From NCBI GenBank assembly GCA_023129715.1, contig JAGMBO010000032.1:22057-86056 (forward strand): a stretch of DNA of 64,000 nucleotides, given 5' to 3'. The notes under the pieces were generated by a model. That model was not told where the DNA came from, did not search any database, and was given only the letters and a program-made list of their open reading frames with translations. The DNA is from Candidatus Eiseniibacteriota bacterium (GTDB lineage Bacteria > Eisenbacteria > RBG-16-71-46 > CAIMUX01 > WJJG01). A program made the position numbers and the translations under genes. Of this stretch, positions 1 to 29,881 are shown one piece after another. The first letter of the stretch is position 1. Every line of letters begins with the position of its first letter.

Positions 1-70
1 CGATCCCGATTACGACAGCTGGTACAACCGCTATCCCTATGGACTCGGTGACCTGAATCGGGATCAATAC

Positions 71-9395: not shown

Positions 9396-9401
9396 TATAA
9401 T
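9396..9401 (+). promoter_or_regulatory. Extended -10 element (TGaTATAAT) in the only AT-rich patch of the 320-nt intergenic, about 70 nt upstream of the C25 peptidase start.
   Basis: Sequence aatgatataattagg at 9391-9405. No clean -35 hexamer. Confidence 0.3.
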
Positions 9402-9471
9402 TAGGATGGTTGTGGCCGTCCGGAGGGGCGTCCGGTCGGCGCAGGGAGAAACACACCCAAGGGGGAATGTC

Positions 9472-13499: not shown

Positions 13500-13613
13500 G
13501 GGATCACCTCCATGTTCGAGGTGGGCGGATTGCATAGCGCGGCTTGCGCAAGTGCGCCGTGAGGAGGATAGGTCTTTGTGCGCCCGCCTGTCAACTTGGG
13601 AGCGCGGCGTAGC

Positions 13614-14495
13614 TCAGGCCTTGATTTTCTCCAGCACTGCCGTGGGCTTGATCCGATGGCGGGTAAGGCCGACCTCATCGGCCGAGAAGCCCTGAGCGAG
13701 TCCGAGGAGCTGGAAGAAGTAGACCGGTGGAACCTCGAAGTGCTCCTTCGTCTTTCGGTTGAGCAGAAGCTGACCGGTGTCGAATGATGAGAAGCAGGTC
13801 GGGCAGATCATCCCCATGCAATCAGCTCCGCTCTTCCTTACCGAGCGCAACACGCTAGCAGTCATATCCAGGGGAAGGTCGGGGTCGATGCACGCCTTGC
13901 CGCAGCAGAGGAAACGCTCGTCATGAGTGACCGGTTCGGCCCCAATCGCCTCGATGAGCTGATGGAGGATCTGGGGATCATCGGGGTCGTCGACCTGCAT
14001 GATCGAGGAGGGCTTCAGCAAGTGACAGCCGTAGTGCAGCGCGACACGCACGCCCGTCAGGGGGCGGGTGACGCTCTCACGCACGCGATCGATGCCGACC
14101 TTCTCGCGCAACAGGACGACGATATGGCGGACGGCAATCGAACCCTGGTATTTCCGGCCGACGCGCGCGAGGCGCCGGTTGACACGCTCGCGCAGCTGCT
14201 CATCGTTGCGCAGAAGGTGATTGGCTTCGCTCAGGGTGCCGGTGCAGCCGCTGCAGACCGTGAAGATGTCGTGGCCCGCCTCCTCGGCGAGGGCCAGATT
14301 GCGGGCCGCGAGCGTGAGCCAGGCGATCTTGTCGGCGGCCTGGAAGTAGATCGGATCGGGACAGCAGGAAAACCCCTCCAGATCGATGATCTCGACGCCC
14401 AGGTTGGGAAGCGTTCGCCGGATGGCGACTTCCATCTGCGGGTACTTGATCGGGATCAGGCAACCGGGGAAGAAGATGGCCTTGATCGGCTTCAT
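13614..14495 (-). CDS. hdrB: Heterodisulfide reductase subunit B (two CCG cysteine-rich domains).
   Basis: IFFPGCLIP...CCPDP and HYGCHLLKPS...CCGKACIDP motifs typical of HdrB. Overlaps hdrC by 4 nt. Confidence 0.85.
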   Translation of the reverse strand: MKPIKAIFFPGCLIPIKYPQMEVAIRRTLPNLGVEIIDLEGFSCCPDPIYFQAADKIAWLTLAARNLALAEEAGHDIFTVCSGCTGTLSEANHLLRNDEQLRERVNRRLARVGRKYQGSIAVRHIVVLLREKVGIDRVRESVTRPLTGVRVALHYGCHLLKPSSIMQVDDPDDPQILHQLIEAIGAEPVTHDERFLCCGKACIDPDLPLDMTASVLRSVRKSGADCMGMICPTCFSSFDTGQLLLNRKTKEHFEVPPVYFFQLLGLAQGFSADEVGLTRHRIKPTAVLEKIKA

Positions 14496-15040
14496 GATTC
14501 ACTCTCCGCGGTCGAAGAGGGCGGACTGTCTCCCGGGGGCGGATCCTCCGGGGCGAGCACAGCCCGCAATTCCCCCATGTCGATCGCCGGCAGGGGAGGC
14601 AGTCCCATGCTCTCCCGCTTGCGCTTCAGGCTGGCGATCACCGGCGCGCTGCGGCCGGTCTTGAGGATCGTCTCGTAGATGGTTTGGGCCTCCTCGGGAT
14701 GCGTGCCCTCCTCGCGGGCGAGGTTCTTCAGCGCAATAATCACCTCGACGGGCCGGACGTCCTGCGGACAGCGCTCGTAGCAGTTGTAGCAATTGGAGCA
14801 TTTCCAGATCACCGATCCGGGAGCGAGGAGGGTACCCAAGTCTCCGAGCAGGGCGGTCAACATGATCTCCCGCGGATTGAAGCTGGGGAAGAAGCGTGTC
14901 GTGGGACAGTCCCCGACACATGCCCCGCATTGGTAGCAGTAGTTGACATGATTCCCGCCCAGCACGGCGAGCAGCCGCCGCCGCTGGGCGAAATCGATAC
15001 GGATGCGCTTGTGGGGGGATGCGGCTTGTTCTGCTTCCAT
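14492..15040 (-). CDS. hdrC: Heterodisulfide reductase subunit C (2x[4Fe-4S] ferredoxin-like).
   Basis: CYQCGACVGDCP and CSNCYNCYERCP cluster motifs. ATG 15040 preceded by GAGGTG. The track ORF's upstream extension is a read-through. Confidence 0.8.
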   Translation of the reverse strand: MEAEQAASPHKRIRIDFAQRRRLLAVLGGNHVNYCYQCGACVGDCPTTRFFPSFNPREIMLTALLGDLGTLLAPGSVIWKCSNCYNCYERCPQDVRPVEVIIALKNLAREEGTHPEEAQTIYETILKTGRSAPVIASLKRKRESMGLPPLPAIDMGELRAVLAPEDPPPGDSPPSSTAESES

Positions 15041-15086
15041 GGACACCTCGTCCGCCTGGTCTCGATCGGCCGGGCCGTTCGCGCGT

Positions 15087-15230
15087 CTAGCCCTTGGCCT
15101 CTTTGGTGGGCCGGATGCTGTTGCTGCGGCAGCGGGGACAGACCCGCTCGACCGGCTCGCCATCCTTCCTGTGGACCGCGGTGAATTCCAGCCCGCAACG
15201 CAGGCACCGAAACCGCCGTTCTTCCTCCAT
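15087..15230 (-). CDS. Small FmdB-family-like zinc-ribbon protein (47 aa) embedded between hdrA and hdrC.
   Basis: MEEERRFRCLRCGLEFTAVHRKDGEPVERVCPRCRSNSIRPTKEAKG. GGGAGG RBS upstream. Not in the ORF track. Confidence 0.5.
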   Translation of the reverse strand: MEEERRFRCLRCGLEFTAVHRKDGEPVERVCPRCRSNSIRPTKEAKG

Positions 15231-15260
15231 TGTTGCTCTCCCTCCCGGGTAGGGTGCCGG

Positions 15261-17783
15261 CTAGGACTTCGCCGGGCCCGCGACAGATGCCGCCGCCCCC
15301 GCGGACGATTCCGCCCGAGCGTCCGCGGCCGCCTCGCGCTTCTTGCGGGCCGCCGCACGCATCTTCTCTTTCCGCCCTTCCCGCCGCTTGCGCTCCTCGG
15401 CGAGCACCTTGCGGGTATGGGCGATCTCCTCCGCCGTCACCTGAGCTCGCGGTTCATCGAGAACGCGCATCACCTCGGCGAATTTCTGCCCCTCGGCCGC
15501 GCTGATCCACTCGAGGTGGAGGCGCTCGGGGCGGATGCCGAGTTTCTCGAGGCGGTCCCAGGCGCGTTCGACGCGCGTGACCGTCTGCCGGTTGGCATTG
15601 ATGTAGTGGCAATCGGCGAAATGGCAGCCGGAGACGAGCACCAGGGGCGCGCCCTTCTCGAAGGCATAGAGAATCAGGTCCTCCGACACCCGCGCGCTGC
15701 ACATCGTGCGCACCAGGCGCCCATGCACCGGGAACTGCAGACGCGCGGTGCCCGCGGTGTCCCCGCCCGCGTAAGAGCACCAATTGCAGGCGAAGGTCAG
15801 GAGCTTGTCCTCGGGGTGTTCGTCGAGGATCGCATCGATTTGCGCCTTGAGCTGCTCATCGGTCGAGTGGCGCATGGTGAGCGCATCCACCGGGCATTCG
15901 GCGGCGCAGCAGCCGCATCCCGAGCAGGCCGCCTCGATGATCTCGGGCACGCCTCCCCGCTGCCAGTGAATCGCATGGAAGGGACAAACGGCAGCACACC
16001 GCCCGCAGCGGATGCAGTCGGCCTCCTCGAGCAGCGGGGTGCCCGCGTCAATGCGGATCCGGCCCGCACTGAGCAGGACCTGGACGTGAGAGGCTGCGGC
16101 GCCCGCCTGGGTTACACTGTCCTTGACGTCCTTCGGAGACTCGCAGCATCCCGCCAGGAAGATGCCCCGGGTGGGGGCGTCGACGGGCTTGAGTTTGGGA
16201 TGGGCCTCGAGGAAGAAGCCGTCACTGGTGCGGCTGAGGGTCAGCAGGCGTTGGACGGTGTTGGAGTCGAGTCGCGGTCTGACGCCCACCGAGAGCACTA
16301 CCATGTCGAGTTCGTGCTGCTCCAGCTCTCCGGCCAGCGTGTTCTCCACGCGCACCCGCAGGTTCTTCGTCTGTGGGTCTTCCTCGATCTCGCCCGGGAT
16401 CCCGCGGATGTAGCGCACGCCGGAGCTGCGGCTGCGCAGGTACAGATCCTCAAATCCCTTGCCGAACGCGCGGATGTCCATGTAGAAGACCTTCGCGTCG
16501 GTATCGGGATAGTGATCCGCGAGCAGCAGCGTGTCCTTGACCGTATTCATGCAGCAGATGTTCGAGCAGTAAGGCGAGCCATAGCGCGAGGAGCGGGAGC
16601 CGACACACTGGATGAAGCCGATGCGCCGCGGTCGCTCGCCGTCGGAGGGGCGGACGAAATGCCCGGCACTGGGGCCGCCGGCGCAGATCAGCCGTTCGAA
16701 CTCCATGCTGGTGATGACGTTGTCGTAGCGGCTGTATCCATACTCGGTGATCTCGGTCGGGTCGTAGGCCTCCATGCCGGTGGCGACGATCATCGCCCCG
16801 ACATCGACCTCGAGGATCTCATCGCGCATGTCGAAATCGATGCACTTCTGTTCACAGACCTCGAGGCACTTGCCGCAGGCAATCGGGTTGTTGCCCAGGC
16901 AGTCCTCGGGATTGATCAGGTAGGCCGAGGGGACCGCTTGAGGAAAGGGAATGTAGATCGCCTTGCGCGAGGCGAGTCCCATTTGGTACTCGTCGGGAAT
17001 GATGACCGGGCAGACCTTGGTGCACTCCGCGCAGCTATTGCACAGATCCTGCTGCACATAGCGCGCCCTGCGGCGTACCTTGACATGGAAGTTGCCCACC
17101 GCGCCCGAGACGTCGATCACTTCGCTCGAGACCAGAACCTTGATCCGGGGATGCCGACCGGCATCCATCATCTTGGGTCCCAGGATTCATATCGAGCAGT
17201 CCATGGTCGGGTAGGTCTTGTCGAGCTGGGCCATCAGCCCCCCGATCGACGGCTCCTTCTCGACCAGATAGACTTGCATGCCGCCGTCGGCGATGTCGAG
17301 CGCGGCCTGGATGCCGGCGATACCGCCCCCGATGACGAGCGCCGCCTGGGTGACATCGACCTCCGGCTCGATCTGAGGCTGAAGCTCATGAGCCCGCGCG
17401 ACCGCGCTACGCACCAGGTCCTTGGCCTTCTGGGTCGCCCCGGCGGGGTCGCCCGCGTGAACCCACGAGCAGTGCTCACGGAGATTGGCCATCTCCATGA
17501 GATAGGGGTTGAGTCCCGCCTGGGCAACGCAGGCGCGGAAGGTGAGCTCGTGCATCCGGGGCGTGCACGAGGCGACCACCACGCGCTCGAGCTTGTGCTC
17601 GCCGATTGCCTTACGGATCTCGTTCTGCCCCGGGTCGGCGCAGGTGTACTTGTTGTGCACCACACAGACGACGCCGGGCAGGGACTGGGCATACTCGGTC
17701 ACCGCCGCGGTGTCGACCGTTCCGGCGATGTTGAGACCGCAGTCGCAGATAAAGACGCCGGTCCTGGGAAAGTTGTTCTCCAT
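15261..17783 (-). CDS. hdrA: HdrA-like flavoprotein with in-frame UGA (predicted selenocysteine at 17187-17189) and a C-terminal MvhD domain (HdrA-MvhD fusion). Ends in a Lys/Arg-rich tail.
   Basis: Two track ORFs (17187..17783 and 15261..17171) are one frame joined by TGA. ...[63 protein letters not shown] aligns with the archaeal HdrA motif LDKTFPT-DCSMC-ILxPK. The C-terminus carries the MvhD signature [16 protein letters not shown]...VRTMCSARV...[12 protein letters not shown]. Confidence 0.8.
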
Positions 17784-17830
17784 CAGCTCCTCTCCGTCTT
17801 GCGGAACCCTGGTTCTCGCAACTCCTCGAT

Positions 17831-19810
17831 TCAGACCTTGGTCCCCTGATCACCCACCGACTGTCCCGCTGCGGCCGCGACCCCCGCGGCGGTTGGCGGC
17901 AAGGCGTCGGCGAGCAGATTCCACAGATCGACGATCTCGAGATCGGCCGCGGGATCTTCGGTCAGGCCTTCCTGGGCGCACCGCAGGTGAATGAAGCACC
18001 CGGGACACGCCGTTACCAGGCGCCGGCCGCCGGTGGCGACTGCCTCGGCGAGACGATCGGCCTGGAAGCGCTTCGTGGCTGCATTGCAGTTGAGCCAAGC
18101 CGTATTGCCGCAGCAGACCGCGCGCTCGCGATGATGCTCCATCTCGACGAGTTCGACACCGGCGACTTCGGTCAGCAGTTGGCGCGGGCGGTCGTAGATG
18201 CCCGAATGGCGGCCCAGCCGGCAGGGATCTTGATAGGTGACCCGGCCGTCGGCGGAATCGGTAGCCATTTCGGCGAGCTCCTCGCGCAGCGCGCCCAAGA
18301 CCAAGCTCAGGTGGGTCACCTCGCAGGCGACGTTGTGGCGGTCGAGCGCATCGCGTAGGGCCACCAGGCATTCGGGGCAGAAGGTGATCACGCGCGTCGC
18401 CCCACTGGCGCGGACTTGGTCGACGACCAGCGCCTCGAGTTCGTCGGCCTCGCGGGCGTAACCGGCGAGGCGCAGGTGGTATCCGCAACAGCGCTCATTG
18501 GCGAGCAGAGCGGGCCTGATGCCCACGTGGTTGAGCAGTTGCACGGCCGAGGACATCGTGCGGGTGAGTCCCGCCCCGGTCTCGCCGCCGAAGTAGGCGG
18601 AGAAGTAGGGGCTGCAGCCCACATAGAGCAGATCGTCCGACTTGCCGCGCTGCCCATCCGCGAGCACCTCGACCTCGAGATCCTCGCTCAGCCAGCCGAG
18701 ACGTTGCTGGCGCAACCCCGGCCGCGCCGCCATGCGGCTGATCTGCTCGAAGACCCCGCCATGGGAGCAGGGCGTGACCTCGTACCCAACCTGCTGCGTC
18801 TCGCCGCCCCAGCCGCTCGCCGCTGTGGACCCGCTGGGCTGCCGGCCATCGCCTGGCTGGCCCTCCGGCGCGGCCGGGGCCGGGTCACCGTCAGTCGCAC
18901 CGGATCGGCGGGCGACCGCCTGCGCGCGGGCACTCACGATGAACTGGCCATAGTCGACGCGCACGGGACAGACCGCCTCGCAAGCACTGCAGGTCAAGCA
19001 GGTCCAGAGAGCCGGATCGTTGGCGGGGCCGGCGGCGCCTGCGGCGAAGGTCCGGGTGATCAGACGGCGCGGGGAGAAACGCTGATAGCGGGCCACCGGA
19101 CAGACGGCGGTACAGCGCCCGCACTCCAGGCAGGCGAAGACGCGCGTGGCTTCGAGGGGCGGGGTTCCCGAGGGCGCAGGTTCGTTCCGGGCATCGCCGC
19201 CGGCGTCGTTTCCCGGCGCCAGCGGGCTGCGGCCGACGCCGCGCACCGCCTCAATGAACTCGTTCATCGTCTCGGCGAAGCGAATCCCCTCGGCGGCCGA
19301 GATCCACTCGAGGCGCAGGCGTTCCGGCTCCAGTCCGAGCAGAGCGGCAAGGGCGGAGGTCTTCTCGTACTGCTCCATGGCCCGGTAGTTGCCGAACATG
19401 TAGTGGCAATCGCCCGGATGACAGCCCGAGACCATCACACCGTCGGCCCCCTGCGCGAAGGCCCGCAAGACATGGCTTGGATGCACGCGCCCCGAGCACA
19501 TCACACGCAGCAGGCGGAAGTTGGGCTCATGCTGCAGTCGCGAGACGCCGGCCGTATCGGCACCGGCGTACGAACACCAGTTGCAGGCGAAGACGAGCAC
19601 CCGGGGATCGAAGCGCTCGCCGCCCGGCTCTTCCCCGGCGCGGGCGGCTGGACGGGATTCACCCGACTTCGCCGCCCGGCTGCGCGTGACGCCCTTGGAC
19701 GCTGCGGCCGGCGCGCGCTTTTTCGTCGTGCCACGGGGCGCGGCCGCGCCCTCCTTCGCACCTGGTGTCTTCCCACTTCCTTGCGCACGTTTCTCGGTCA
19801 TACCACCCAT
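17831..19810 (-). CDS. MvhD-HdrC-HdrB fusion (HdrD-like iron-sulfur/CCG protein with N-terminal MvhD domain and basic low-complexity N-tail).
   Basis: [18 protein letters not shown]...VMCSGRV...[11 protein letters not shown] (MvhD). [12 protein letters not shown] and [12 protein letters not shown] (2x4Fe4S). [14 protein letters not shown] and [12 protein letters not shown] (CCG domains). Start at 19810 or 19801 is uncertain. Confidence 0.75.
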
Positions 19811-19823
19811 CCTGCCGGCAGCC

Positions 19824-22800
19824 CTAATGGTCCGCCCGCTCGTGAACCTCCACGGCGAAGAGATCATCGATCATCGCGGTGATCTGATCGTCGGTGAAGT
19901 GTTGTGCGGTGATCGCGCCGGTCGGACACCAAACGGCGCAGGTGCCGCATCCCTTGCAGAGCGCCGCGTTGATGCTCGCCACCAGCGAGCCGGCAGGGTC
20001 GGTCACCAGACCCGGCGCCTGGAATTCGCAGATCGACACGCAGAGACCACATCCCCGGCAGCGGTCGGGATCGACCCGGCAGGCGGTCGGCTCGAGGAAT
20101 AGCCGGCCGGCGCCGAGCAGGGCGGCGACCCGCGCGGCTGCGGCGGAAGCCTGAATCAGCGAGTCGCGGAGATCCTTGGCCCCCTGGGCGGTGCCGCAGA
20201 GCACCACACCGTCGACGCACGTCTCGACCGGGGCCAGTTCCGGGTGGCGTTCGAGGAAGAAGCCGTCGGTGCCGCGCGGGGTCTTCAGCATCTGCTGGAC
20301 GCGACCCGCCTCTTGCGCGCGGGGCACGAGACCCACGGCCAGGACAACGAGATCCACCTCTGCGATGACCTCGCCGCGCAGCAGCGTATCCTCGGCGACG
20401 ACCTCGTGCGCCCGGCCATCGCGGCCCTGAACCACAGGGGGAGCACTGGCGTCGTAGCGGATGAAGAGCGTACCCATCTCGCGGGCCTGGCGATAGCTCT
20501 CCTCGGCGCCACAGCCGACCATGCGCATGTCGCGATAGAAGATAGTCGAGTCGATGTCATGCCCGTGGAGCTGCTGTGCCTGCTTGATCGTGGTCGGGCA
20601 GCAGATGCGGGAACACCCGGGGCAACCCGTCGCCGCGGGGCGCTCCGCGGATTCGGCCCCGTCGGTGCGCGCGGCTGCGGAGTCGGCAGGATCCCGTCGT
20701 GAGCCGACACACTGGATGAAGGCGACGCGCTCGACCCCCGCGAGGCCCTCGGTGCCCTGGGCCAGCCGGGCCTCCAGCTCCACCGAGGTGATCACGTTGC
20801 GATAGGTTCGATACCCGAACTCACCCTCCGCGGGCACATAGGGGTCGGCGCCGATGGCGACGACGATCGCGCCCGCTTCGATGTCCTCCTCATCGGGGCC
20901 TGGTTCGACGGGGGTGCGGGGGGCGGGATGCTCCCCGGCGGACTCCCGGGTAGCATCCCGGGATTCCGGCTTCCCGGAGATGGTTTCCCCGGAATCCTGC
21001 GCCGGTCCCAGCCGAACCCGGAAGTTGCCGACGAAGCCGGTCACCTGTCGGATGTCGGTGGACAGCCGCAGATCGACGCCGCTCTCCGCGACACGTGCCA
21101 GCATGCTTCCAACGGCCTCCTGCGCGTCCCGTCCGTCGGGATAGAGTGAGTGAAGATCGCGCAGCAGTCCGCCCGCAGCGGGAGCGCTCTCGATCAGGGT
21201 CACCTCGAAACCGAGGGCCTTGAGATCACTGGCGGCCTTCATTCCCGGCAAGCCGGCGCCCATGACAACCACCCGGCGGCTCACACTGACCTCGATCGGC
21301 TCGAGCGGCTCGAGGCGGCGGGCGCGCGCGACGCCCATTCGCAGCAAGTCGAGCGCCTTGGCGGTCGCCTGGCCGGGGGCGGCGGCATGGACCCAGGAGC
21401 ACTGATCGCGAACGTTGACCATCTCGAGCAAGTAGGGGTTCAGCCCCGCCTCAAGGCAGTTCTGCCGGAAGATCGGCTCGTGGGTCCGCGGCGTGCAGGC
21501 GGCCACGACGACGCGGGTGAGCTTGTGCTCCTCGATCGCATCCTGGATCGCCTGCTGCGAGCTGCTCGAGCAGGCGAAGAGCTCCTCGCCGACATGGACG
21601 ACGCTCGGGAGGTCGCGGGCGGTGGCCAGGAGCGCCGACATGTCGAGAACTCCGGCGATATTGACTCCACAATGACAGAGAAAGACGCCGATGCGTGGCG
21701 CCCCATCCTCGACGGTATCGCCGCCTGCGATGCCGTGGTCGTCCCATTCGTTGGCGGCGTGTTCCTCGACAGCCGATTCACCCGCAGCCTCCGATGGGCA
21801 CGCGGTCCCCGCCGCGGCAGGGACAGGCGGCACGCCGCCGCCCAGGGAGATCGCCGCCTCGGTCGCCGCCGCCGACCCCTGAGTCACGCAGTCGGGGATC
21901 ACCTGCGGCCCGGTTGCGCTGCCACAGACGAAGACGCCGGCCCGATTGCTGGCCATCGGCCGCTCGCCCGGGCTGGTCTGGAAGAAGCCGTGGGGAGTAG
22001 TAGTGATGCCCAGACGTGCGGCGAGCTCGGCGGTGCCGTCGGTCGGCACACCGCCGCAGGAGAGAATGACCATGTCGGCAGTGAGCCGTAGCTGCTCGCC
22101 GGTCTCGGTGTTCTCGACGGCGACCTGCAGGTCATGCGAGGCGGGGTCTTCGAGGATCTTGGCGGGCCGGCCGCGCAGGAAGTGGATCCACTCGGTGTCC
22201 CGGGCGCGCCCGTAGAACTCCTCGAAGCCCTTGCCGAAGGCGCGCACGTCGGTGTAGAGAATCGTTACCGCCTCCAGGTCGGGTTCGTGCTGTTTGAGCA
22301 GCAACCCATCCTTGATCGCGTTCATGCAGCAGAAACGCGAGCAGTAGGCGCGCCCCGCCTCACCGCGCGATCCGACGCACTGTACGTAGATCAGGTTGCG
22401 GGGAGAGCCGCCGTCGGAAGGACGGCGCACATGGCCCAGGGTGGGGCCCGAGGCGTTGAGGAGGCGCTCGAGTTCCAGGCTGGTCAGGACGTTGGGATAG
22501 ACTCCGTAGCCGTAGTTGCGCAGCACGCGCGGATCGAATTCGTCGAAGCCGGTCGCGGCGATTACCGCGCCGACCTCGAGGATCCGATCCTCCGGTGTTG
22601 CATCGAGGTCGATGGCATCGCGCGTACAGGCCTTGACGCAGAGCTTGCACTGGCGGCAGAGCTCGAAATCGATCGCATAGGCGGCGGGGACCGATTGGGG
22701 GAAGGGGCGTCCGATCGCCTTGCGCGGCCCCATCCCGGCATCGAAGCGGCTGAGCCCCTCGGCGGGACAGACCTCGGCGCAGGCGCCACAGGCGGTGCAG

Positions 22801-23126
22801 CGCGCTTCATCGACCCCCGTCGGGTGCCGGCGGATGGTGGCGCGAAAGGCCCCCGCCTCACCCTCGAGAGTGAGGAGCTCGGAACAGCGCAAGATCTCGA
22901 TCCGGGGATGCCGACCGGCATCCATCATCTTGGGACCGAGGATTCAGATCGCGCAGTCCATCGTGGGAAAGGTCTTGTCGAGCTGGGCCATCCGCCCGCC
23001 CAACGACGGCGTGCGCTCTACCAGGAAGACCTGATGCTGCGCCGTGGCCAGATCCAGGGCGGCCTGGATCCCGGCAATGCCGCCGCCGATGACGAGAACC
23101 GCCCTGTCTCGGTCGCTGCCTGCCAT
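19824..23126 (-). CDS. hdrA: Tandem-domain HdrA-like flavoprotein (HdrA2-type). N-terminal FAD module has in-frame UGA (predicted Sec at 22944-22946). Second HdrA-like module lacks the Sec/Cys motif. C-terminal 2x[4Fe-4S] ferredoxin.
   Basis: The track splits it into 22944..23126 and 19824..22928. ...[37 protein letters not shown] second CxCGxNIA domain ([15 protein letters not shown]) and a second Rossmann module ([17 protein letters not shown]) follow. C-terminus [13 protein letters not shown]...[12 protein letters not shown]. Confidence 0.8.
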
Positions 23127-23143
23127 GATCCCCCTTCCTTGTT

Positions 23144-23722
23144 TCAGATGTCCGCGGCCTTGGCCGGCCCGCCCTTGGCGGCTACCGCCTCGGCGGCGTA
23201 TTGCAACCCCTGTTCGAGGGCTGAGAGGTTGAAGTCCTCGGTCCCCGCGGGCACCGAGGTGCGCACCGCTTCGCGCAGCGCCTCGACCTCAACGAGGCCG
23301 GTACAGCCGACGAGGAAGCCGAGCATGACGATATTGGCCGCCATGCGACGGCCCATCTTCTCCGCCGTGCGCGTCGCCGGTACGGAGGCGACGAAGCTCG
23401 CCTGGGCGGGCGGTGTTCCCGCGTCGACCAGATCCTGGTCGTAGAGCAGCACGCCTCCGTCAATGAGCTCCTCCGTCCAGCTGTCGTAGCCCTCCTGCGA
23501 CATCGCCACCAGGATTTCCTGACCGCGGACGTAGGGGTAGTGGATCGGTTCGTCGGCGACGACGACCTGCGCAGCGCAGGCGCTGCCGCGGGCCTCGGGA
23601 CCATAGGACTGCACCAGGGTGGCCGACTTATGGTCGTAGACGCTGGCCGCCTTCCCGAGAACGTAACCCGCCAGGACGATTCCCTGCCCGCCGAACCCGG
23701 TGATACGGATCTCTCTTCTCAT
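23144..23722 (-). CDS. korC: 2-oxoacid:ferredoxin oxidoreductase gamma subunit.
   Basis: [22 protein letters not shown]... matches the Por/Kor gamma family signature. 17-nt gap to hdrA2. Confidence 0.8.
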
Positions 23723-23742
23723 CGCGTTTGCTCCACTCGTCG

Positions 23743-24648
23743 CTAACGTCCCCGCCGCTGCGCCAGATTGGCGCCCATCCGGTCGAGGAAGGTCGGTTTC
23801 TCGATGTCGACGAACTTGCCGACGACGATCTTCTCCTGGAAGCCGATGTCGATCTCGGCGGTATTGGCGCCGTGGCGGACTTCGCAGTTGTCGTGATAGA
23901 ACTTCATCAAGTCGGTGCCGGTGCCCAGGCGATTCTTGCGCGCATAGAGCGTCGAACAGGGGGCGATGACCTCGATGAAGGAGAATCCTCGATGGCTGAG
24001 CGCCGCGACCATCGCCTGCTTCATGCGGCGCACGTGCAGGGCGGTCCAGCGCGCGACGTAGGTGGCGCCACAGGAGGCGACCAGGTGGGGGACATTGAAG
24101 GGGTACTCGCTGTTCCCGTAAGGCGAGGTCGTGGTGCGGGCGCCGTGCGGGGTCGTCGGGGCGAGTTGCCCGCCGGTCATGCCATAGATGAAGTTGTTGA
24201 CGCAGATGATCGTGATGTCGATATTGCGCCGCGCCGCATGGATCAGATGATTGCCGCCGATCGCCACCAGATCTCCGTCACCGCTGAAGACGACCACCTT
24301 CAGCTTCGGATTCGCCAGGTGCAGCCCCGTCGCAAAGGGGATCGCCCTGCCGTGGGTCGTGTGGAAGGAGTCGAGGTTGACATAGCCGGCGACCCGTCCC
24401 GTGCAACCGATGCCGGAGACCACGGCGAATCGCTCCTCGGGGATGCCGCTCTCCTCGATCGCCTCGACGAAGCTGCTGACGCAGGTGCCGATGCCGCAGG
24501 TCGGGCACCAGATGTGCGGCAGGCGATCGCTGCGCAGCAGGCGGTCCTTGGGATGCGCATGAGCCTCGCGGACATCCGGCGCCGGCGGGGCTGCGGTGTC
24601 CGATCCGCCGGCTCCTGCACCGGCCGCTGTTGCGGCTTTCTGGTTCAT
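23743..24648 (-). CDS. korB: 2-oxoacid:ferredoxin oxidoreductase beta subunit (TPP-binding).
   Basis: WCPTCGIG...GIGCTGR...VVFSGDGDLVAIGGNHLIHAARRNIDITIICVNNFIYGMTGGQ, a TPP-binding motif. Confidence 0.85.
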   Translation of the reverse strand: MNQKAATAAGAGAGGSDTAAPPAPDVREAHAHPKDRLLRSDRLPHIWCPTCGIGTCVSSFVEAIEESGIPEERFAVVSGIGCTGRVAGYVNLDSFHTTHGRAIPFATGLHLANPKLKVVVFSGDGDLVAIGGNHLIHAARRNIDITIICVNNFIYGMTGGQLAPTTPHGARTTTSPYGNSEYPFNVPHLVASCGATYVARWTALHVRRMKQAMVAALSHRGFSFIEVIAPCSTLYARKNRLGTGTDLMKFYHDNCEVRHGANTAEIDIGFQEKIVVGKFVDIEKPTFLDRMGANLAQRRGR

Positions 24649-25802
24649 GAGCTGGCCTCCTCGATTCTGGCGAGTATCGTCTCCGGATCGTGAACCGCGC
24701 CGCCGGCATGCGGCACGTGGATCGTCCTGGCGCGTCCTGCCGCGCAGCGTTCGACCTCGTAGACCATCTGACCCAGGTTGATTTCCGGGACGACGAAGCC
24801 CTTGATCCGTGTCGCAAGCTCACGGATCACGCGCTCGGGAAACGGCCAGGCGACAATCAGGCGCAGGAGACCGACCCGCCGGCCTTGCTGGCGTGCCATC
24901 TCGACGGCCAACTGCGCGACGCGCGAGGTGATCCCGTAGCAGACGACGACGACCTCGGCCTCCGCGATACCGTCGCTCTCGTAGCGAATGATCTGCTCCG
25001 CATTCTTGCGGATCTTCTCGATCAACCGGGGCACCATCCGCTGCTGCACCGGGGCGACGACTTCCGGGTAGCCCCGCTCATCATGAGTCAATCCGGTCAC
25101 GTGAATGCGGTAGCCCTGACCGGCGGCGACCATCAGCGGGACGAGGTTCTCTTCGGGTTGATAGGGGAGGTAGTCCGCGGGCGCGGCGTCGGTGATCCGC
25201 CGTTCGATGCGGGCGATCTGATCCTCCGGCGGAATGACGACCTTCTCGGTCATGTGGCCGACGACTTCATCGCTCATCACCAAGACCGGAAGGCGGTAGG
25301 TCTCCGAGAGATTGAAGGCGTCGATGGTGAGGTCGAAACACTCCTGGGGCGAGTTGGGACAGAGGGCGATGATCTCGTAGTCGCCGTGGGATCCCCAGCG
25401 GGCCTGCATCATGTCCTGCTGGCCGACAAGCGTCGGCAGGCCGGTTGAGGGTCCCCCGCGCTGGACATTGACCAGCACGCAGGGGGTCTCGGTCATCACC
25501 CCGAGGCCGAGATTCTCCATCATCAGGCTGAAACCCGGTCCCGAGGTCGAGGTCATCGACTTGCGCCCGGCCCACGAGGCGCCCAGGATGGCGCCCATCG
25601 AGGCGATCTCGTCCTCCATCTGGATGAAGATGCCTTCGACGTCTGGCATCCGCTCCGACATCCGCTCGGCGACCTCGGTGGCGGGGGTGATCGGATAGCC
25701 GGCGAAGAAGGTACAGCCGACCGCCAAGGCTCCCTCGGCCGCGGCCACGTCGCCGTTCATGAAATGCTCGCCGGTGAGGACGGCGCCCCGAGGCTCACTC
25801 AC
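24645..25802 (-). CDS. korA: 2-oxoacid:ferredoxin oxidoreductase alpha subunit.
   Basis: LTGEHFMNGDVAAAEGALAVGCTFFAGYPITPATEV... GTG 25802 preceded by AAGGAGG. 8-nt overlap with korD. The track ORF N-terminal extension is a read-through. Confidence 0.85.
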   Translation of the reverse strand: MSEPRGAVLTGEHFMNGDVAAAEGALAVGCTFFAGYPITPATEVAERMSERMPDVEGIFIQMEDEIASMGAILGASWAGRKSMTSTSGPGFSLMMENLGLGVMTETPCVLVNVQRGGPSTGLPTLVGQQDMMQARWGSHGDYEIIALCPNSPQECFDLTIDAFNLSETYRLPVLVMSDEVVGHMTEKVVIPPEDQIARIERRITDAAPADYLPYQPEENLVPLMVAAGQGYRIHVTGLTHDERGYPEVVAPVQQRMVPRLIEKIRKNAEQIIRYESDGIAEAEVVVVCYGITSRVAQLAVEMARQQGRRVGLLRLIVAWPFPERVIRELATRIKGFVVPEINLGQMVYEVERCAAGRARTIHVPHAGGAVHDPETILARIEEASS

Positions 25803-26259
25803 GGCTGGCCTCCTTCTGGCTGCGGGACGATGCTCGCTGCGCGCCTGCCGGTGGTCCGGCGGGCGGCTCCGCGGACGACTGTGCTGCCGACTGCTCGGGG
25901 GACTGCCCGGCCGACTGCTCGGGGGACTGCCCGGCCGGTTGCTCGGCGGATTGCCCGGCCGGTTGCTCGGCGGATTGCCCGGCCGGTTGCTCGGCGCCGG
26001 GGTCGGGCACATCCTCCGAGTAGATGGCGAACTCGGGGCAAATGATCTCGCAGAGGCTGCAATTGACACAGGCGTCTTCTTTGACCGGCTCGGGATAGTG
26101 GTAGCCCTTCTTGTTGTATCTCTCCGAGATGACCAGGACGTCCCGCGGGCAGTATTCGACGCAGAACCCGCAGCCCTTGCAGCGCTCGACAATGATGTAG
26201 ATGCGCCCCCGTGGCGGCATGAACTGCTGCCGGTCCAATGGCGTTCTCCAAAAGCGCAT
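25795..26259 (-). CDS. korD: 2-oxoacid:ferredoxin oxidoreductase delta subunit (2x[4Fe-4S] ferredoxin) with an unusual C-terminal octapeptide-repeat tail (AEQPAGQS x5).
   Basis: CKGCGFCVEYCP and CVNCSLCEIICP. C-terminal tandem 24-nt DNA repeats at about 25878-25999. RBS GGAAGGG. Confidence 0.75.
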   Translation of the reverse strand: MRFWRTPLDRQQFMPPRGRIYIIVERCKGCGFCVEYCPRDVLVISERYNKKGYHYPEPVKEDACVNCSLCEIICPEFAIYSEDVPDPGAEQPAGQSAEQPAGQSAEQPAGQSPEQSAGQSPEQSAAQSSAEPPAGPPAGAQRASSRSQKEASRE

Positions 26260-26307
26260 GGGTGAGCCCTTCCGTTGCCCGTCGGGGGGCGAAGTGCATG
26301 GGGATGT

Positions 26308-26841
26308 CTAGGTGCGCAGCGACATGATCAGCAGATCGTGGTTTTTCCCCTTGGTGTCCTTCACGAAGCCTTTCAACGTGCCATCCTCCTTGAAGTCGAG
26401 CTCCTCGAAGAAATGGATCACGGCGGGTTGATCGCTCATCAAATGCACCTCGATCTTTTCGAGATCCTCGGCGATGCCGTGGGCAAGGATCTGGCGGCAG
26501 AGGAATTCGGCCAGACCAGTGCGGCGGAAGTCGGGGGCCACAATTACGCGCACCTCACCGACGTGGGAGCCGAGGCCAAAGGTGCGATGCTCAATTGAGC
26601 CCTCGGCCACAATGCGCTCGCCGGCCAGGGCGACGAGCCGTAGCACGTTCCAACGCGCGGGGGGGTTCATGCGTCGCTCGACGATGTCACGCTGGGTGAC
26701 GTCGACGCGCAGGTGGAGGCGGTCTTCCTCGGGGAGCGAGCCGAAGAACTCCAATAGGGGAAACAGGTCGTCGGAGCGCAGCGGCCGAACCGCTACCACC
26801 TTGCCGTTCCGGCACTTGAGACTTCTCGGATAGCGGACCAT
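26308..26841 (-). CDS. GNAT-family N-acetyltransferase (paralog 1).
   Basis: GNAT fold pattern with acetyl-CoA binding region (RRTGLAEFLCRQILAHG). 48 nt upstream of korD. Confidence 0.65.
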   Translation of the reverse strand: MVRYPRSLKCRNGKVVAVRPLRSDDLFPLLEFFGSLPEEDRLHLRVDVTQRDIVERRMNPPARWNVLRLVALAGERIVAEGSIEHRTFGLGSHVGEVRVIVAPDFRRTGLAEFLCRQILAHGIAEDLEKIEVHLMSDQPAVIHFFEELDFKEDGTLKGFVKDTKGKNHDLLIMSLRT

Positions 26842-26860
26842 TGCCCCCTGATGTCCCTCC

Positions 26861-27460
26861 CTAGTGTCGCTCCCGCCCGTGGCCGTCCATTGCGTGCATC
26901 ATGTCTTCCAGGCGCCGCCAGAGCTTCTTGATGTTGACCGTCATCACGGCGACGTCCTTCAGTTCGCCGTGCAGGGTGCGCACATGGTCGGGCAGGACCG
27001 CCTCCGTCTGAAATCCCAGGCTCTCGGCCATACGTACCGCCGGGCGCTGCTCTTGCACCACCATCCCAAAGAGCTTTTCCACCTTGCGGCGGGTCGCCTC
27101 CTGATAGAGCCCGCTGAACATAATCGAGCCCAGCCCGCGGCCGCGGTAGGGGCGAGCGATGATGCAGCGCAGCTCGGCGGTGTGGCGCATCCATCCGTAG
27201 CGTGGCTGGGAGAGCGTGGCGTCGGCGACGATCTCATCGCCATCCAACGCCACCAGGCGCCAGTGCTCGCGGGCGTCGGTCTTTTCCATCCGGATGCGCA
27301 CATTCTCGATCTGGGCCACGTCCGTGCGGAGGAACTGGCGGTCTTCTTCGGGGAGTGCGAGAAAGAAACGGTGGGATTGCTCAAGATCCTCCTCGCGCAT
27401 CGGGCGCAGGAGAATCTCGGTGCCGTCACGTAGTTGGACGGTCTTCGGATACGCAGCCAT
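26861..27460 (-). CDS. GNAT-family N-acetyltransferase (paralog 2, tandem to the previous).
   Basis: Alignable to paralog 1 (ILLRPMREEDLEQSHRFFLALPEEDRQFLRTDVAQ vs VAVRPLRSDDLFPLLEFFGSLPEEDRLHLRVDVTQ). RGRGLGSIMF is an acetyl-CoA motif. ATG 27460. Confidence 0.65.
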   Translation of the reverse strand: MAAYPKTVQLRDGTEILLRPMREEDLEQSHRFFLALPEEDRQFLRTDVAQIENVRIRMEKTDAREHWRLVALDGDEIVADATLSQPRYGWMRHTAELRCIIARPYRGRGLGSIMFSGLYQEATRRKVEKLFGMVVQEQRPAVRMAESLGFQTEAVLPDHVRTLHGELKDVAVMTVNIKKLWRRLEDMMHAMDGHGRERH

Positions 27461-27707
27461 GCGCGACGTCCTTTTTCCGTCGGCACGCGTTCCGTCAGGG
27501 CGACCTGACCGGCCCGGAGGCCGGCGGCCGAGAAATACATCCGTCAGGATAGCCAAACCGCAAGGGGATGTAAACCCTGGAGGTTCCGCTCGCGGATGGC
27601 TCACCGCGGGAGGCCTCCGGCGGGGGGCGCGGGGCCGACAGATCTCCCCCCCCGGCCCCGGCCGGAGTCGGGTCCCGGAGCGGGTGCCCGGGCCACGACC
27701 GAGGCGT

Positions 27708-28454
27708 CTAGCGCCCCATCGCCTCCATCGGATTGAAGGTCTTCTTCTCGTATCCCTTGGGCAGTCGGAAGACTTCCCGCGGGGCCTTCTCCTCGCGGAT
27801 CTCGATCACCTCGGTGCGCTGCTTCGTCTCCTGGCCCATGACCTGCACGGTCTGTTCCTGGAGGACAATGATGCCCTTGATCTTCTGGAAGCTGCTCATC
27901 GCGTCCTTGGTGACCGGGTTGACCGAGAAGAGAGCCTCATAGAGCTTCCAGTAGAGCTTGGGGTCGACAGAGGTGTCTTCGGTCGCCCAGGCATCCATTT
28001 GGATAGTCACGAAGTTGTTCTTCATCTCGACCTGATAGAGCCGCGCGTCCCAGGAACGGATCTCCTTCGTCTGATCCGTCGGGGTGACGGTGATCGTCGT
28101 CTGCATGGCCTGCATCATCTGCTTGAACATCTGGGCACTGGGATCGTCTTCCGGGAGGACATTGGCCAGATCGATCGGCAGCGAGAGCATGACGTAGCTC
28201 TGGTCCTCGTGGTTGATCAGGTAGAATTGCGATAGATCCAGGCGTACGAGGGCGTCGGCGCCCCCGCCGGAGACGGCCAGGCGATCCGTGGAGAGCCAAA
28301 TCGTGGACGTGTCGTCCTGGGCGGTTTGGGTCTCACCCATCGCCGAGGGCAGATCCGTGTGGACGATCTGGCGGATGAGTACATCTCCGAGAGCCGGCCC
28401 GGGCAAAAGGGCCAGAGCGATCAGCCCGAGCATTATCACGCCGAAACACCGCAT
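27708..28454 (-). CDS. Secreted hypothetical protein (signal peptide, no recognizable catalytic motifs).
   Basis: MRCFGVIMLGLIALALLPGPALG signal peptide. Strong RBS AAAGGAGGGAAG. The track ORF's long upstream extension has no RBS or signal peptide and is read-through. Confidence 0.55.
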   Translation of the reverse strand: MRCFGVIMLGLIALALLPGPALGDVLIRQIVHTDLPSAMGETQTAQDDTSTIWLSTDRLAVSGGGADALVRLDLSQFYLINHEDQSYVMLSLPIDLANVLPEDDPSAQMFKQMMQAMQTTITVTPTDQTKEIRSWDARLYQVEMKNNFVTIQMDAWATEDTSVDPKLYWKLYEALFSVNPVTKDAMSSFQKIKGIIVLQEQTVQVMGQETKQRTEVIEIREEKAPREVFRLPKGYEKKTFNPMEAMGR

Positions 28455-28522
28455 TACTTCCCTCCTTTGGGCTCTTGACTCGGCCGCGCCGTGCCGCGCC
28501 GGCTGAGTCGGTGGTATCGGTC

Positions 28523-29881
28523 TCACGCCTTGCGGGAGACGGTTTCGCCGGTGCTTGCCGGCACGGCGTGATCCGCTTGGAACGCCGCCAGTCGCTGGTC
28601 GGCGAGGTCGAACTGCGATGCGTCGACGAAGGAAACACACGCCCGCAGGCCCTCTTTCCTCAGGCTGCCAGTCGATTCCAGGGTGATCGCACTGACGCCG
28701 TAGTAGAGCATCTCCATGAGCAGCTCCTGGCCGCTGAAGCCAGGATAGGCGAAGGTGAAGTAGAACCCGTCGGCGAGCGGTTCTCCCAAGTCGTTGTCAT
28801 AGACCAACGTGAATCCGTGCCGGGTGAAGATCTCCTTGAGCGCCGCAGCTCGCCGGCCATACTCGCGGGTGGTTGCCACGAAATCGAGCTCACCCGCGTT
28901 GGCTTTGCGCATCAATCCGAACAGCCCCCACTGCGAGGACTGCGGGACGCCCGAAGTCGTGCAATAGACGCCGCCATGCACGAAGGCATGGCCGACATTC
29001 TCGGTGCCGAACTTCGCCTGCAACGCCGGCGCCTTCATCTCGAGCAGTGCCGGAGAGATCACCGCGATGCCGATGCGGGCCCCGGCAAAGCTGAAGATCT
29101 TCGAGGAAGAGACAAGTAGGAAGTAGTGATCGGTATGGCTGGCAATCGTCGGCTGATAGGGGGGGTGGCCGGGGACCGAATAGTCTTGGCGGAAATCCAT
29201 GCAGAGGTAGGCGAGATCCTCGATCGCGAGGACGTCGTAGCGCGTGCAGAGCTCGCCTAAGCCGCGCAGTTCCTCTTCCTTGAGTGTGATCCAGGCGGGG
29301 TTGTTGGGGTTCGAGTAGAGCATCCCGCCGATGCGCCCGCTGGCTAACTTCTCTTCGACAGCGGCGATCAAACGGTCTCCGCGGTGGTCGGCCAGTTCGA
29401 TCGAGTCGCTCTCGAGCCCCAGGAAACGCGTTTGGCGCATGCTCACCGGGAAGGAGGGATTGAGAAAGAGGATCGTCTCCCGGCCGGGCAACCGGTTACC
29501 GGCGATCGCCTGGGCAATGAACCCGCCCTGCATCGCTCCGACGGTGGGGATGCAACACTCCGCGGGGACCTCGATGTCGAGGAAGCTCCTCATGAAACCG
29601 GCCGCCTCGGCCTTCAGCTCGGGGATTCCATCGAACGGGGGGTATCGATTGCTCACCGCGCGGTGCTCTTCTGCCTCGCGGGCCACTTGGGGGCCGATCG
29701 GGTCGTAGGGTAGATTGGGGATCCCGAACTCCATGCGGATGTAGCGCACGCCGAGCTGCTCCTCGATCAGCCAGACGAGCCGGTTCGTCTCGCGAATCGA
29801 GAGATTGGCGGGGTCGAAGCCGGTGGCATCGAGAACCGCCTGGATTCTCGCGCGGTCGAAGGGGACGTCGCCTGGGTGCAT
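28523..29881 (-). CDS. PLP-dependent aminotransferase (class I/II fold).
   Basis: ATG 29881 preceded by GAGGAGGAGG. The 1234-aa track ORF is a run-on. Aminotransferase-like core with SSSKIFSFAGARIG (PLP-lysine region). Confidence 0.7.
   Translation of the reverse strand: MHPGDVPFDRARIQAVLDATGFDPANLSIRETNRLVWLIEEQLGVRYIRMEFGIPNLPYDPIGPQVAREAEEHRAVSNRYPPFDGIPELKAEAAGFMRSFLDIEVPAECCIPTVGAMQGGFIAQAIAGNRLPGRETILFLNPSFPVSMRQTRFLGLESDSIELADHRGDRLIAAVEEKLASGRIGGMLYSNPNNPAWITLKEEELRGLGELCTRYDVLAIEDLAYLCMDFRQDYSVPGHPPYQPTIASHTDHYFLLVSSSKIFSFAGARIGIAVISPALLEMKAPALQAKFGTENVGHAFVHGGVYCTTSGVPQSSQWGLFGLMRKANAGELDFVATTREYGRRAAALKEIFTRHGFTLVYDNDLGEPLADGFYFTFAYPGFSGQELLMEMLYYGVSAITLESTGSLRKEGLRACVSFVDASQFDLADQRLAAFQADHAVPASTGETVSRKA

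Follow-up and report, generated by a model that had tools for sequence, protein, structure and literature searches.

Few candidate electron-bifurcating enzymes are as widespread as the HdrA-type proteins, and beyond the methanogens a donor, acceptor or thiol substrate has been assigned to almost none of them. In tubeworm symbionts and in Thioflavicoccus mobilis, reverse tricarboxylic acid (rTCA) cycle genes form the operon tfrAB-hdrCB-korDABC-hdrA-flxDCBA-aclBA (Rubin-Blum 2019, PMC6315080; Mitchell 2024, PMC11636981); Hdr-Flx has been proposed to pass electrons from NADH directly to 2-oxoglutarate:ferredoxin oxidoreductase (OGOR) and thiol:fumarate reductase, and in transcriptome data the genes show the behaviour of a single operon (PMC6315080; PMC11636981). 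The HdrA2B2C2 enzyme of Methanosarcina acetivorans works without a hydrogenase, taking electrons from reduced ferredoxin to reduce a disulfide and bifurcating from F420H2 (Yan 2017, PMC5296606). Cryo-electron microscopy of class II benzoyl-CoA reductase, the BCRII complex (BamB-I), of Geobacter metallireducens identified BamE as a dimer of HdrA fused into one chain, with a single bifurcating FAD, in an HdrA-type core that is coupled to a docked low-potential enzyme and that sends high-potential electrons from an HdrD-like subunit to electron-transferring flavoprotein (ETF) (preprint 10.64898/2026.04.10.717634). Additionally, seven genes of Syntrophobacter fumaroxidans, Sfum_0012-0018, have been listed without analysis as 'HdrAL/POR' (Sedano-Nunez 2018, PMC5947623), and a single large cluster with Mvh/Hdr, OGOR and PFOR is mentioned in the paper on Zixibacteria RBG-1. 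Here, a 64-kb stretch of DNA from Candidatus Eisenbacteria, given as a soil or sediment bacterium, was analysed over its whole length (the window). It carries a gene train in which a four-subunit 2-oxoacid:ferredoxin oxidoreductase (Kor) is followed directly by a set of Hdr genes, and the conservation, composition and possible function of this kor-hdr cluster were examined.

The train comprises 14 head-to-tail genes on the minus strand, running from 29881 to 13614 in the transcription order aminotransferase, signal-peptide protein, two GNAT acetyltransferases, korD-A-B-G, a fused HdrA, an MvhD-HdrC-HdrB fusion (HdrD-like, and hence termed MvhD-HdrD), an HdrA-MvhD fusion of the HdrA2 type, a Zn-ribbon protein, hdrC and hdrB. 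Because the high G+C content of the window (60-70%) inflates the number of spurious open reading frames (ORFs), genes were picked first on third-position G+C and afterwards on profile matches, their identities being backed by matches in Pfam, NCBIfam and the PDB. An earlier reading made from the sequence alone had described a co-directional train of 13 genes with gaps of 0-70 nt. Profile annotation bore out every one of its gene identities and the train does occupy a single strand, but the genes number 14 and, while most intergenic distances fall between -4 and 68 nt, the secreted-protein gene is separated from the first GNAT gene by 247 nt.

Gene order is conserved in a way that makes the coupling of Kor to Hdr real at that level, with no canonical partner in this lineage, and the interpretation made from the sequence alone is partly supported; the mechanism suggested below builds on synteny and on analogy with the solved Hdr-Fwd and BCRII complexes and with HdrA2B2C2. 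Proteins of the window were compared by tblastn with 83 related loci, 57 of which are informative in that they include at least 7 kb of upstream DNA. A korA gene lies on the same strand no more than 9 kb upstream, as part of a full korDABG set, in 50 of these 57 loci, and in two more korA is slightly farther away or inverted. The kor-hdr loci span at least 13 bacterial phyla as well as Thermoplasmata archaea, with carriers among the Eisenbacteria, Bacteroidota, Ignavibacteria, Zixibacteria, Calditrichota, KSB1, Marinimicrobia, Gemmatimonadota, Planctomycetota, Armatimonadota, Chloroflexota, Leptospirales and many Desulfobacterota, the last including the cultured isolate Desulfoprunum benzoelyticum. 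Relatives of the MvhD-HdrD protein run into the thousands: of the candidates scored, 3429 reach E<=1e-10, and there are 424 clusters at 50% identity at E<=1e-30 and at least 561 confirmed loci in contigs taken from one genome per species. In another Eisenbacteria metagenome-assembled genome (MAG; locus L003) the order from aminotransferase to hdrB is as in the window, minus the GNAT genes, and korG overlaps hdrA by 4 nt, the corresponding gap being 17 nt in the window; a Bacteroidota MAG (L005) carries korDABG, fused HdrA with selenocysteine (Sec), MvhD-HdrD, HdrA2, hdrC and hdrB. The sequence-only reading had treated kor and hdr as a unit, and the juxtaposition is indeed kept in related genomes across many phyla, well beyond what chance would give.

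The front end that it drew from amino acids to 2-oxoacids fared less well, being specific to the lineage and outside the conserved module. The aminotransferase recurs only in the Eisenbacteria locus L003 (79% identity), as does a homologue of the secreted protein (49% identity, at the equivalent position), and a single GNAT homologue lies beside korD in five other loci (L013, L018, L027, L054 and L064). When the flanking ORFs of the 83 loci were clustered, no ORF family beyond the core was common to more than seven loci, and no additional conserved neighbour (hydrogenase, formate dehydrogenase, NuoEF, ETF, DsrC or ferredoxin) was found.

The related loci fall into two layouts. The fused-HdrA layout, as in the window, is present in 30 loci, whereas 39 have a GltD-type ('HdrL') layout in which fused HdrA is replaced by a protein of ~1100 aa or by a 775-aa MvhD fusion. 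The HdrL module is complete and GltD/NfnB-like, with Fer4_20, a full Pyr_redox_2 and the Pyr_redox NAD(P)H Rossmann domain, and in loci L025 and L054 an MvhD domain is fused to the GltD-like NAD(P)H module. A separate hdrB gene is present in 15 of 23 fused-HdrA loci as opposed to 1 of 28 GltD-type loci. Many relatives do, then, have a third partner, NAD(P)H, and the window version appears to have swapped it for a second CCG site. Citrate synthase (six relatives) and malate dehydrogenase (four) within the cluster provide a tricarboxylic acid (TCA) cycle context.

No hydrogenase, formate dehydrogenase, Flx/NuoEF, Rnf, ETF or AOR is encoded among the scanned ORFs of the 64-kb window, and an MvhG-like gene lies within 10 kb in only 2 of the 83 related loci (L022 included), one of the two being without kor. 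The ORF profile scans confirm the earlier observation that MvhAG, Fdh and Flx are missing from the window, and none is conserved beside the relatives. However, the significance attached to a missing canonical partner has to be reduced, since hydrogenase-independent function is precedented by HdrA2B2C2 and the 39 GltD-type relatives carry a built-in NAD(P)H module. The train is bounded on both sides, upstream by a divergent FKBP/thioredoxin-like gene and downstream of hdrB by a secreted BNR/FlgD_ig gene, which is not conserved, and then a convergent C25 peptidase gene; these boundaries exclude a canonical partner encoded in the same operon just outside the window.

Two archaeal-looking contigs from JGI metagenomes (L006 and L007) carry an MvhD-HdrD relative of ~40% identity and no kor. 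In these clusters hdrA-like genes number five or more and mvhD occurs twice as a free gene, together with hdrCB and NiFe hydrogenase subunits, so that the same Hdr parts are there joined to a hydrogenase in place of Kor.

Subunits of the Kor and Hdr modules

The four kor genes, all on the minus strand, are as follows.

25795..26259 (-), KorD, delta subunit, two [4Fe-4S] clusters; Pfam Fer4/Fer4_7, best NCBIfam match OGOR_delta, under its cut-off
24645..25781 (-), KorA, alpha subunit; POR_N and PFOR_II, NCBIfam PRK08659 at 568 bits against a cut-off of 411
23743..24648 (-), KorB, beta subunit, thiamine pyrophosphate-binding, overlapping korA by 4 nt; TPP_enzyme_C, best NCBIfam match 2-oxoglutarate ferredoxin oxidoreductase beta, under its cut-off
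23144..23722 (-), KorG, gamma subunit; Pfam POR, best NCBIfam match 2-oxoacid:ferredoxin oxidoreductase gamma

Pfam matches establish that alpha, beta, gamma and delta subunits of a four-subunit enzyme are encoded together. The model passed by KorA, PRK08659, is a generic one for the alpha subunit of 2-oxoacid:acceptor oxidoreductases, and the beta, gamma and delta subunits stay under equivalog cut-offs; POR and VOR score far below the 2-oxoglutarate and generic 2-oxoacid models. The best PDB matches of KorA are 1yd7 (2-keto acid:ferredoxin oxidoreductase alpha subunit of P. furiosus), 8ys5 (2-oxoglutarate synthase alpha subunit) and 6n2n (Magnetococcus OGOR), and its match to POR in the PDB reaches 55 bits only. 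Judged from these similarities, Kor is likely to be specific for 2-oxoglutarate, a preference also favoured by the citrate synthase and malate dehydrogenase genes that adjoin the cluster in relatives. KorD ends in a low-complexity tail of ~65 aa, (EQPAGQSA)n, encoded by a 24-nt tandem repeat at 25892-25996 (-) with 4.4 copies and 95% match; the tail is absent from KorD of L003 (114 aa) and L005 (91 aa).

The Hdr proteins are encoded downstream of korG.

19824..23126 (-), fused ('tandem') HdrA selenoprotein, 1100 aa, U61; three-piece alignment to HdrA of M. wolfeii (5ODC_A)
17831..19801 (-), MvhD-HdrC-HdrB (HdrD-like) fusion, 656 aa; Pfam FlpD, Fer4_8 and two CCG domains
15261..17783 (-), HdrA-MvhD fusion selenoprotein of the HdrA2 type, 840 aa, U199; Pfam FlpD at residues 662-776, with FAD and Fer4 domains
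14492..15040 (-), HdrC, 182 aa, two [4Fe-4S] clusters; Pfam Fer4_8/9/17, TIGR03290 (CoB_CoM_SS_C) at 101 bits, under the cut-off of 160
13614..14495 (-), HdrB, 293 aa, the last gene, overlapping hdrC by 4 nt; two CCG domains, TIGR03288 at 307 bits against a cut-off of 345

The fused HdrA aligns with 5ODC_A in three pieces (query residues 10-382 with 146-518, 477-623 with 4-150, and 909-1090 with 471-650). Its first unit, which is without the N-terminal domain, consists of the thioredoxin-reductase-like FAD domain and the inserted ferredoxin domain, with Sec at the position of Cys197; the second has the N-terminal Fe-S domain, a divergent thioredoxin-reductase-like domain and the C-terminal ferredoxin domain, and is without an equivalent of Cys197. 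The protein fits the complementary domain loss described in the fused HdrAs of anaerobic methanotrophic archaea by Chadwick et al., a pattern that the cryo-electron microscopy preprint also shows for BamE. The possibility that an NAD(P)H site is hidden in the second unit was considered and rejected: resemblance to GltD is limited to an FAD-type Rossmann start, and the HdrA-type sequence 'FIQCVGSR' at the position of the second Rossmann domain, together with the lack of Fer4_20, also speaks against such a site.

HdrA-MvhD is an HdrA complete with its N-terminal domain and with Sec replacing Cys197, followed by an MvhD domain. Its alignment to the HdrA model spans the whole of that model. It passes the NCBIfam HdrA2 model NF040770 (1139.7 bits, cut-off 1100, aligned over positions 1-775 of 777) and, on the strength of this full-length match, is the counterpart of Methanosarcina HdrA2. 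The sequence-only reading had given the HdrA2 label to the tandem HdrA; an HdrA2-type protein is present, but it is the HdrA-MvhD fusion, and the tandem protein reaches 1005 bits, under the same cut-off. The remaining fusion, MvhD-HdrC-HdrB, is made up of a [2Fe-2S] adaptor, a domain with two [4Fe-4S] clusters and a pair of CCG domains, and has an identical counterpart among public proteins. Its MvhD part scores 155 bits to 5odc_D, and its CCG part is closest to models of the TfrB/LdhH/GlpC type, the HdrB models of NCBIfam not being matched. Two MvhD domains are therefore fused into Hdr proteins, as had been noticed from the sequence. The separate HdrB aligns end to end with HdrB of M. wolfeii (5ODC_B), and the scores of HdrB and HdrC under the equivalog cut-offs of TIGR03288 and TIGR03290 are what a non-methanogen would be expected to give. 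Of the cofactor ligands, those checked are kept, namely Sec for Cys197, all ten cysteines of the two CCG motifs of HdrB, and the FAD fold of HdrA.

Both hdrA genes contain an in-frame UGA codon, missed in the first reading, which is followed by a selenocysteine insertion sequence (SECIS).

22944..22946 (-), in-frame UGA, Sec61 of the fused HdrA; the frame continues through the TGA
17187..17189 (-), in-frame UGA, Sec199 of HdrA-MvhD; the frame continues through the TGA
22906..22923 (-), SECIS hairpin GGAUGCC-GGUC-GGCAUCC of the fused HdrA gene; folding and covariation
17149..17166 (-), SECIS hairpin of the HdrA-MvhD gene, identical in sequence and register; folding and covariation

By alignment, the two UGA codons sit at Cys197 in the M. 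wolfeii HdrA motif DCSIC197IL (DCSIC-ILxPK), the frame at both reading ...TMDC(A/S)..., and across the window and the 83 related loci the motif codon is TGA in 95 of 99 cases and TGC in the other four. Each hairpin starts 23 nt past its UGA, and one stem pair covaries (C-G 37, U-A 34, U-G 9, mismatch 1), the changes being compensatory and at coding positions. The GGUC loop resembles that of the E. coli fdhF SECIS. Judged from codon, fold and covariation, the two Sec codons with their SECIS elements look functional. Public gene callers read the Sec codon as a stop and break up the two genes there, giving products of 60 + 1034 aa and 198 + 636 aa respectively, and the split genes persist in public records. 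Since HdrA is already known as a selenoprotein family, the Sec codons are a correction of annotation rather than a discovery. Genes for selA, selB, selD or tRNA-Sec were not found within the 64-kb window, and an Rfam scan of 11500-32500 returned zero matches, SECIS elements included.

Proposed electron flow and its alternatives

The conserved core is read here as one electron-transfer system, in which Kor would be the low-potential port of a hydrogenase-independent, HdrA-type assembly for flavin-based bifurcation or confurcation; a probability of about 0.5 is given to this reading. The core consists of korDABG, fused Sec-HdrA, MvhD-HdrD and HdrA2, to which the window adds the Zn-ribbon protein, HdrC and HdrB. 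An OGOR-type four-subunit Kor would provide the low-potential port, at about -500 mV. By analogy with BamE, the fused HdrA may be an intramolecular pseudo-dimer that forms the core together with MvhD-HdrD, the latter taking the place of BamF plus BamD. Kor could then exchange electrons with the ferredoxin-like domains of HdrA, either directly through KorD or by way of ferredoxin, in a docking arrangement that may be likened to that of Fwd on Hdr in methanogens or BamBC on BamE. The CCG proteins would serve as the port of high potential, with a thiol/disulfide couple or an ETF-like acceptor as their substrate, and the mid-potential port would be NAD(P)H in the 39 relatives with a GltD/NfnB module. 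In the window type, a sub-complex of HdrA2, HdrC and HdrB, with a second CCG site, would take the place of the NAD(P)H port, and could feasibly act as a reduced-ferredoxin:disulfide oxidoreductase like HdrA2B2C2 of Methanosarcina.

With oxidative flow, an amino acid would be turned via 2-oxoglutarate into succinyl-CoA, the electrons being drained into the Hdr system. For this organism a slight lean towards oxidation is taken because an aminotransferase lies upstream, peptidases and dicarboxylate and alanine symporters are encoded nearby, and citrate synthase and malate dehydrogenase accompany the cluster in relatives.

Several points weigh against the proposed system. The three-port bifurcation scheme is, in the window version, without an identified mid-potential donor or acceptor, and we know of no obvious equivalent of coenzyme M (CoM) and coenzyme B (CoB) in these bacteria. 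A fusion of Kor and Hdr genes is found in 0 of the 57 informative loci, and for this reason physical docking of Kor is deduced from adjacency alone. A sigma-70-like promoter match at 27574-27546 (-), inside the 247-nt gap of the train, may indicate that the aminotransferase is transcribed separately. Finally, the homologous cluster of Syntrophobacter was not detected in proteomes (Sedano-Nunez 2018, PMC5947623).

In a more specific form of the proposal, Kor would be docked directly on the Sec-HdrA pseudo-dimer, and the ports would be 2-oxoacid/acyl-CoA and two thiol/disulfide (or ETF-like) sites, so that neither H2, formate, F420, NAD(P)H nor free ferredoxin would take part. This form is considered unlikely. 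If true, it would represent a new class of 2-oxoacid-linked bifurcating enzyme and would reveal the physiological partner of bacterial HdrB-type sites.

Of the alternatives, the one that survives best is that the same complex runs reductively, although this too seems rather unlikely. HdrA would then bifurcate electrons, the low-potential ones entering Kor for carboxylation of succinyl-CoA (2-oxoglutarate synthase) while the exergonic branch reduces a disulfide or another acceptor at the CCG proteins, and the aminotransferase would make glutamate. The published rTCA model of the tubeworm symbionts, in which korABCD is co-expressed with Hdr-Flx, is of this kind; there are structures in which Hdr supplies electrons of low potential to a docked enzyme that fixes CO2 or works at very low potential, the reversibility of 2-oxoacid:ferredoxin oxidoreductases is established, and an aminotransferase is equally usable for biosynthesis. 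However, neither ATP-citrate lyase nor a thiol:fumarate reductase flavoprotein is encoded within the window, the relatives have citrate synthase in place of ATP-citrate lyase, and the window version does not encode a mid-potential donor module. The window is, moreover, rich in secreted peptidases and importers of amino acids and dicarboxylates.

It is less probable again that a canonical partner (MvhAG, Fdh or Flx/NuoEF) is encoded elsewhere in the genome and that an ordinary Mvh/Flx-Hdr complex merely lies beside kor. All solved complexes have MvhD as the adaptor to hydrogenase or Flx, the archaeal relative of MvhD-HdrD in L006 clusters with NiFe hydrogenase subunits, L022 has its MvhG-like gene, and Zixibacteria RBG-1 is reported to combine Mvh/Hdr, PFOR and OGOR. 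Conversely, the scarcity of MvhG-like genes near the 83 loci, and the fact that partner families are not conserved near the cluster, are difficult to reconcile with this explanation; HdrA-MvhD fusions are able to work without a hydrogenase, and the fusion of MvhD to a GltD-like NAD(P)H module in L025 and L054 indicates that MvhD is a general adaptor.

That kor and hdr are independent and share an operon for regulation, Kor being a TCA-cycle 2-oxoglutarate oxidoreductase on bulk ferredoxin and Hdr an unrelated thiol redox system, would suit the lack of Kor-Hdr fusions, a contact deduced from adjacency only and the undetected Syntrophobacter proteins, but is very improbable given a junction kept in 50 of 57 informative loci from at least 13 phyla and archaea amid variable surroundings, a spacing of 17 nt or 4-nt overlaps, the low-potential Fe-S chemistry run by both partners, and the kor-hdrA adjacency in the separately described gammaproteobacterial operon.

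The proposed Kor-linked system is of interest because of its wide spread, its two selenoproteins and its assayable entry into bacterial Hdr-like function. The cluster ties HdrA-type proteins to one easily assayed enzyme, 2-oxoacid:ferredoxin oxidoreductase, and since cultured carriers exist this offers an experimental handle, with 2-oxoglutarate and CoA as substrates in one direction and, in the opposite one, succinyl-CoA and CO2 with NAD(P)H or thiols. Should Kor feed straight into, or draw straight from, the bifurcating flavin, the energetics assumed for this step of the anaerobic TCA or reverse TCA cycle in many uncultured lineages would change, and the principle of the docked low-potential enzyme, so far represented by Fwd and BamBC, would be extended.

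Other genes of the train and window

The remaining members of the train are listed below in order of transcription.

28523..29881 (-), class I/II aminotransferase, 452 aa; Pfam Aminotran_1_2, best PDB match 3g0t (putative aminotransferase), 388 bits
27708..28454 (-), signal-peptide protein, 248 aa; no Pfam or NCBIfam match, N-terminus MRCFGVIMLGLIALALLPGPALG read from the sequence
26861..27460 (-), GNAT paralogue 2, 199 aa; Pfam Acetyltransf_3/_1/_4
26308..26841 (-), GNAT paralogue 1, 177 aa; Pfam Acetyltransf_1/_7, weak PDB similarity to diamine/spermidine N-acetyltransferases
15087..15230 (-), Zn-ribbon protein, 47 aa, CxxC...CxxC; Pfam Zn_ribbon_8 at 31.3 bits, under the cut-off of 34.4

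Despite its sub-threshold score, the Zn-ribbon protein has tblastn matches at the equivalent position after HdrA2 in ~30 related loci, and it is called as a gene both in the public annotation of the source contig and in L003. The GNAT proteins encoded beside korD in other loci share 31-40% identity, come from Planctomycetota, Calditrichota and KSB1, and are mostly in divergent orientation; in the window the gene is a tandem duplicate.

The BNR/FlgD_ig gene at 11877-13535 was considered as a further member of the operon and rejected, because the next gene in L003 is on the opposite strand; a promoter-like site in the gap before the gene also counts against its membership. Terminator-like sites were not enriched (6 found against 7.4 expected), promoter matches at consensus level number four in all, and the scan for both gave no information on operon limits. 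The divergent FKBP/thioredoxin-like gene upstream of the train contains tandem repeats of 30 nt (3.2 copies) and 27 nt (2.0 copies) at 30235-30368 (+), in its N-terminal coding region.

Elsewhere, the window encodes peptidases, sugar-nucleotide transferases and a helicase. An SDF sodium:dicarboxylate symporter (34981-36291, -) and a sodium:alanine symporter (47040-48506, -), together with the peptidases, point to an amino-acid- or peptide-consuming lifestyle. Five large secreted proteins end in FlgD_ig, namely a beta-helix protein (2-5230, +), a C25 peptidase (9319-11817, +), the BNR protein (11877-13535, -), an S8 peptidase (40742-43333, +) and an fn3/CBM96 protein (43604-46564, -), which suggests a common C-terminal sorting or anchoring signal in the lineage. 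According to the public gene table, a gene for an rve-family integrase/transposase (~5719-6558, +) lies between the beta-helix gene and an inositol-phosphatase-like gene. Three ORFs whose third-position G+C is like that of coding sequence (51572-53530, +, 652 aa; 31600-32235, -, 211 aa; 32265-33194, -, 309 aa) gave no match in Pfam at the thresholds used, and a gene for a DUF6754 protein (33860-34984) neighbours unmatched ORFs. A Lon-like protease (54356-57394, +) has AAA_32, LonB lid, LonC helical and Lon_C domains.

Comparison with described systems

The folds and cofactor ligands of HdrA, HdrB, HdrC and MvhD in the MvhADG-HdrABC complex (PDB 5ODC) are kept in the window proteins. Unlike that complex, however, the cluster is without MvhA and MvhG, its MvhD domains form part of other subunits, its HdrA has been duplicated and fused, and the carrier is a bacterium without CoM and CoB. 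The resemblance to HdrA2B2C2 lies in an HdrA-MvhD fusion encoded in an operon with hdrC and hdrB and in the lack of a hydrogenase from the window. F420H2 and CoM-S-S-CoB, which the archaeal enzyme uses, are not known in Eisenbacteria; the window protein, for its part, is a selenoprotein and has Kor, MvhD-HdrD and another, fused HdrA encoded alongside it.

The Sfum_0012-0018 cluster of Syntrophobacter, with its 2-oxoacid:ferredoxin oxidoreductase, HdrA and HdrL, fits the korDABG-HdrL-MvhD/HdrD-HdrA2 layout of the 39 GltD-type loci, which include Syntrophobacter MAGs; this assignment to the HdrL layout is inferred from gene count and taxonomy. It differs from the window in having an HdrL protein (GltD-like, NAD(P)H) and no separate hdrCB.

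The architecture of the fused HdrA and its neighbour is like that described for BamDEF, with a fused HdrA (BamE), an MvhD-like adaptor (BamF), an HdrD-like CCG protein (BamD) and a Sec residue in the module, a likeness drawn from the description of the architecture only. PDB searches with the window proteins gave no matches to BamE, BamD or BamF, the structures of which are absent from the PDB set searched. By comparison with the Bam complex, the window has neither the BamBC tungsten enzyme nor the NuoEFG-like BamGHI module; MvhD and HdrD form one polypeptide, and Sec is in HdrA, at the Cys197 position, as opposed to the MvhD-like subunit.

The rTCA operon of the tubeworm symbionts and T. mobilis shares with the window, in gene content, a four-subunit Kor immediately 5' of hdrA, and hdrC and hdrB within the operon. 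FlxABCD, thiol:fumarate reductase and ATP-citrate lyase are encoded there and not in the window, whereas the fused Sec-HdrA, the MvhD-HdrD fusion and the extra HdrA-MvhD belong to the window and not to the rTCA operon. No paper was found that analyses a kor-hdr cluster without Flx and hydrogenase, or its distribution; the genome papers of D. autotrophicum HRM2 and D. multivorans and the N47 paper do not mention a kor-hdr link, and nothing relevant was found in the literature on Eisenbacteria or Phycisphaerae with Hdr. To call the wiring of Kor to Hdr undescribed, as the sequence-only reading did, is nonetheless too strong, since the kor-hdrA-flx operon (PMC6315080, PMC11636981) and 'HdrAL/POR' (PMC5947623) were published earlier. 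The concept of the coupling is thus not new, and it is the partner-less, Flx-less version of the cluster that is new.

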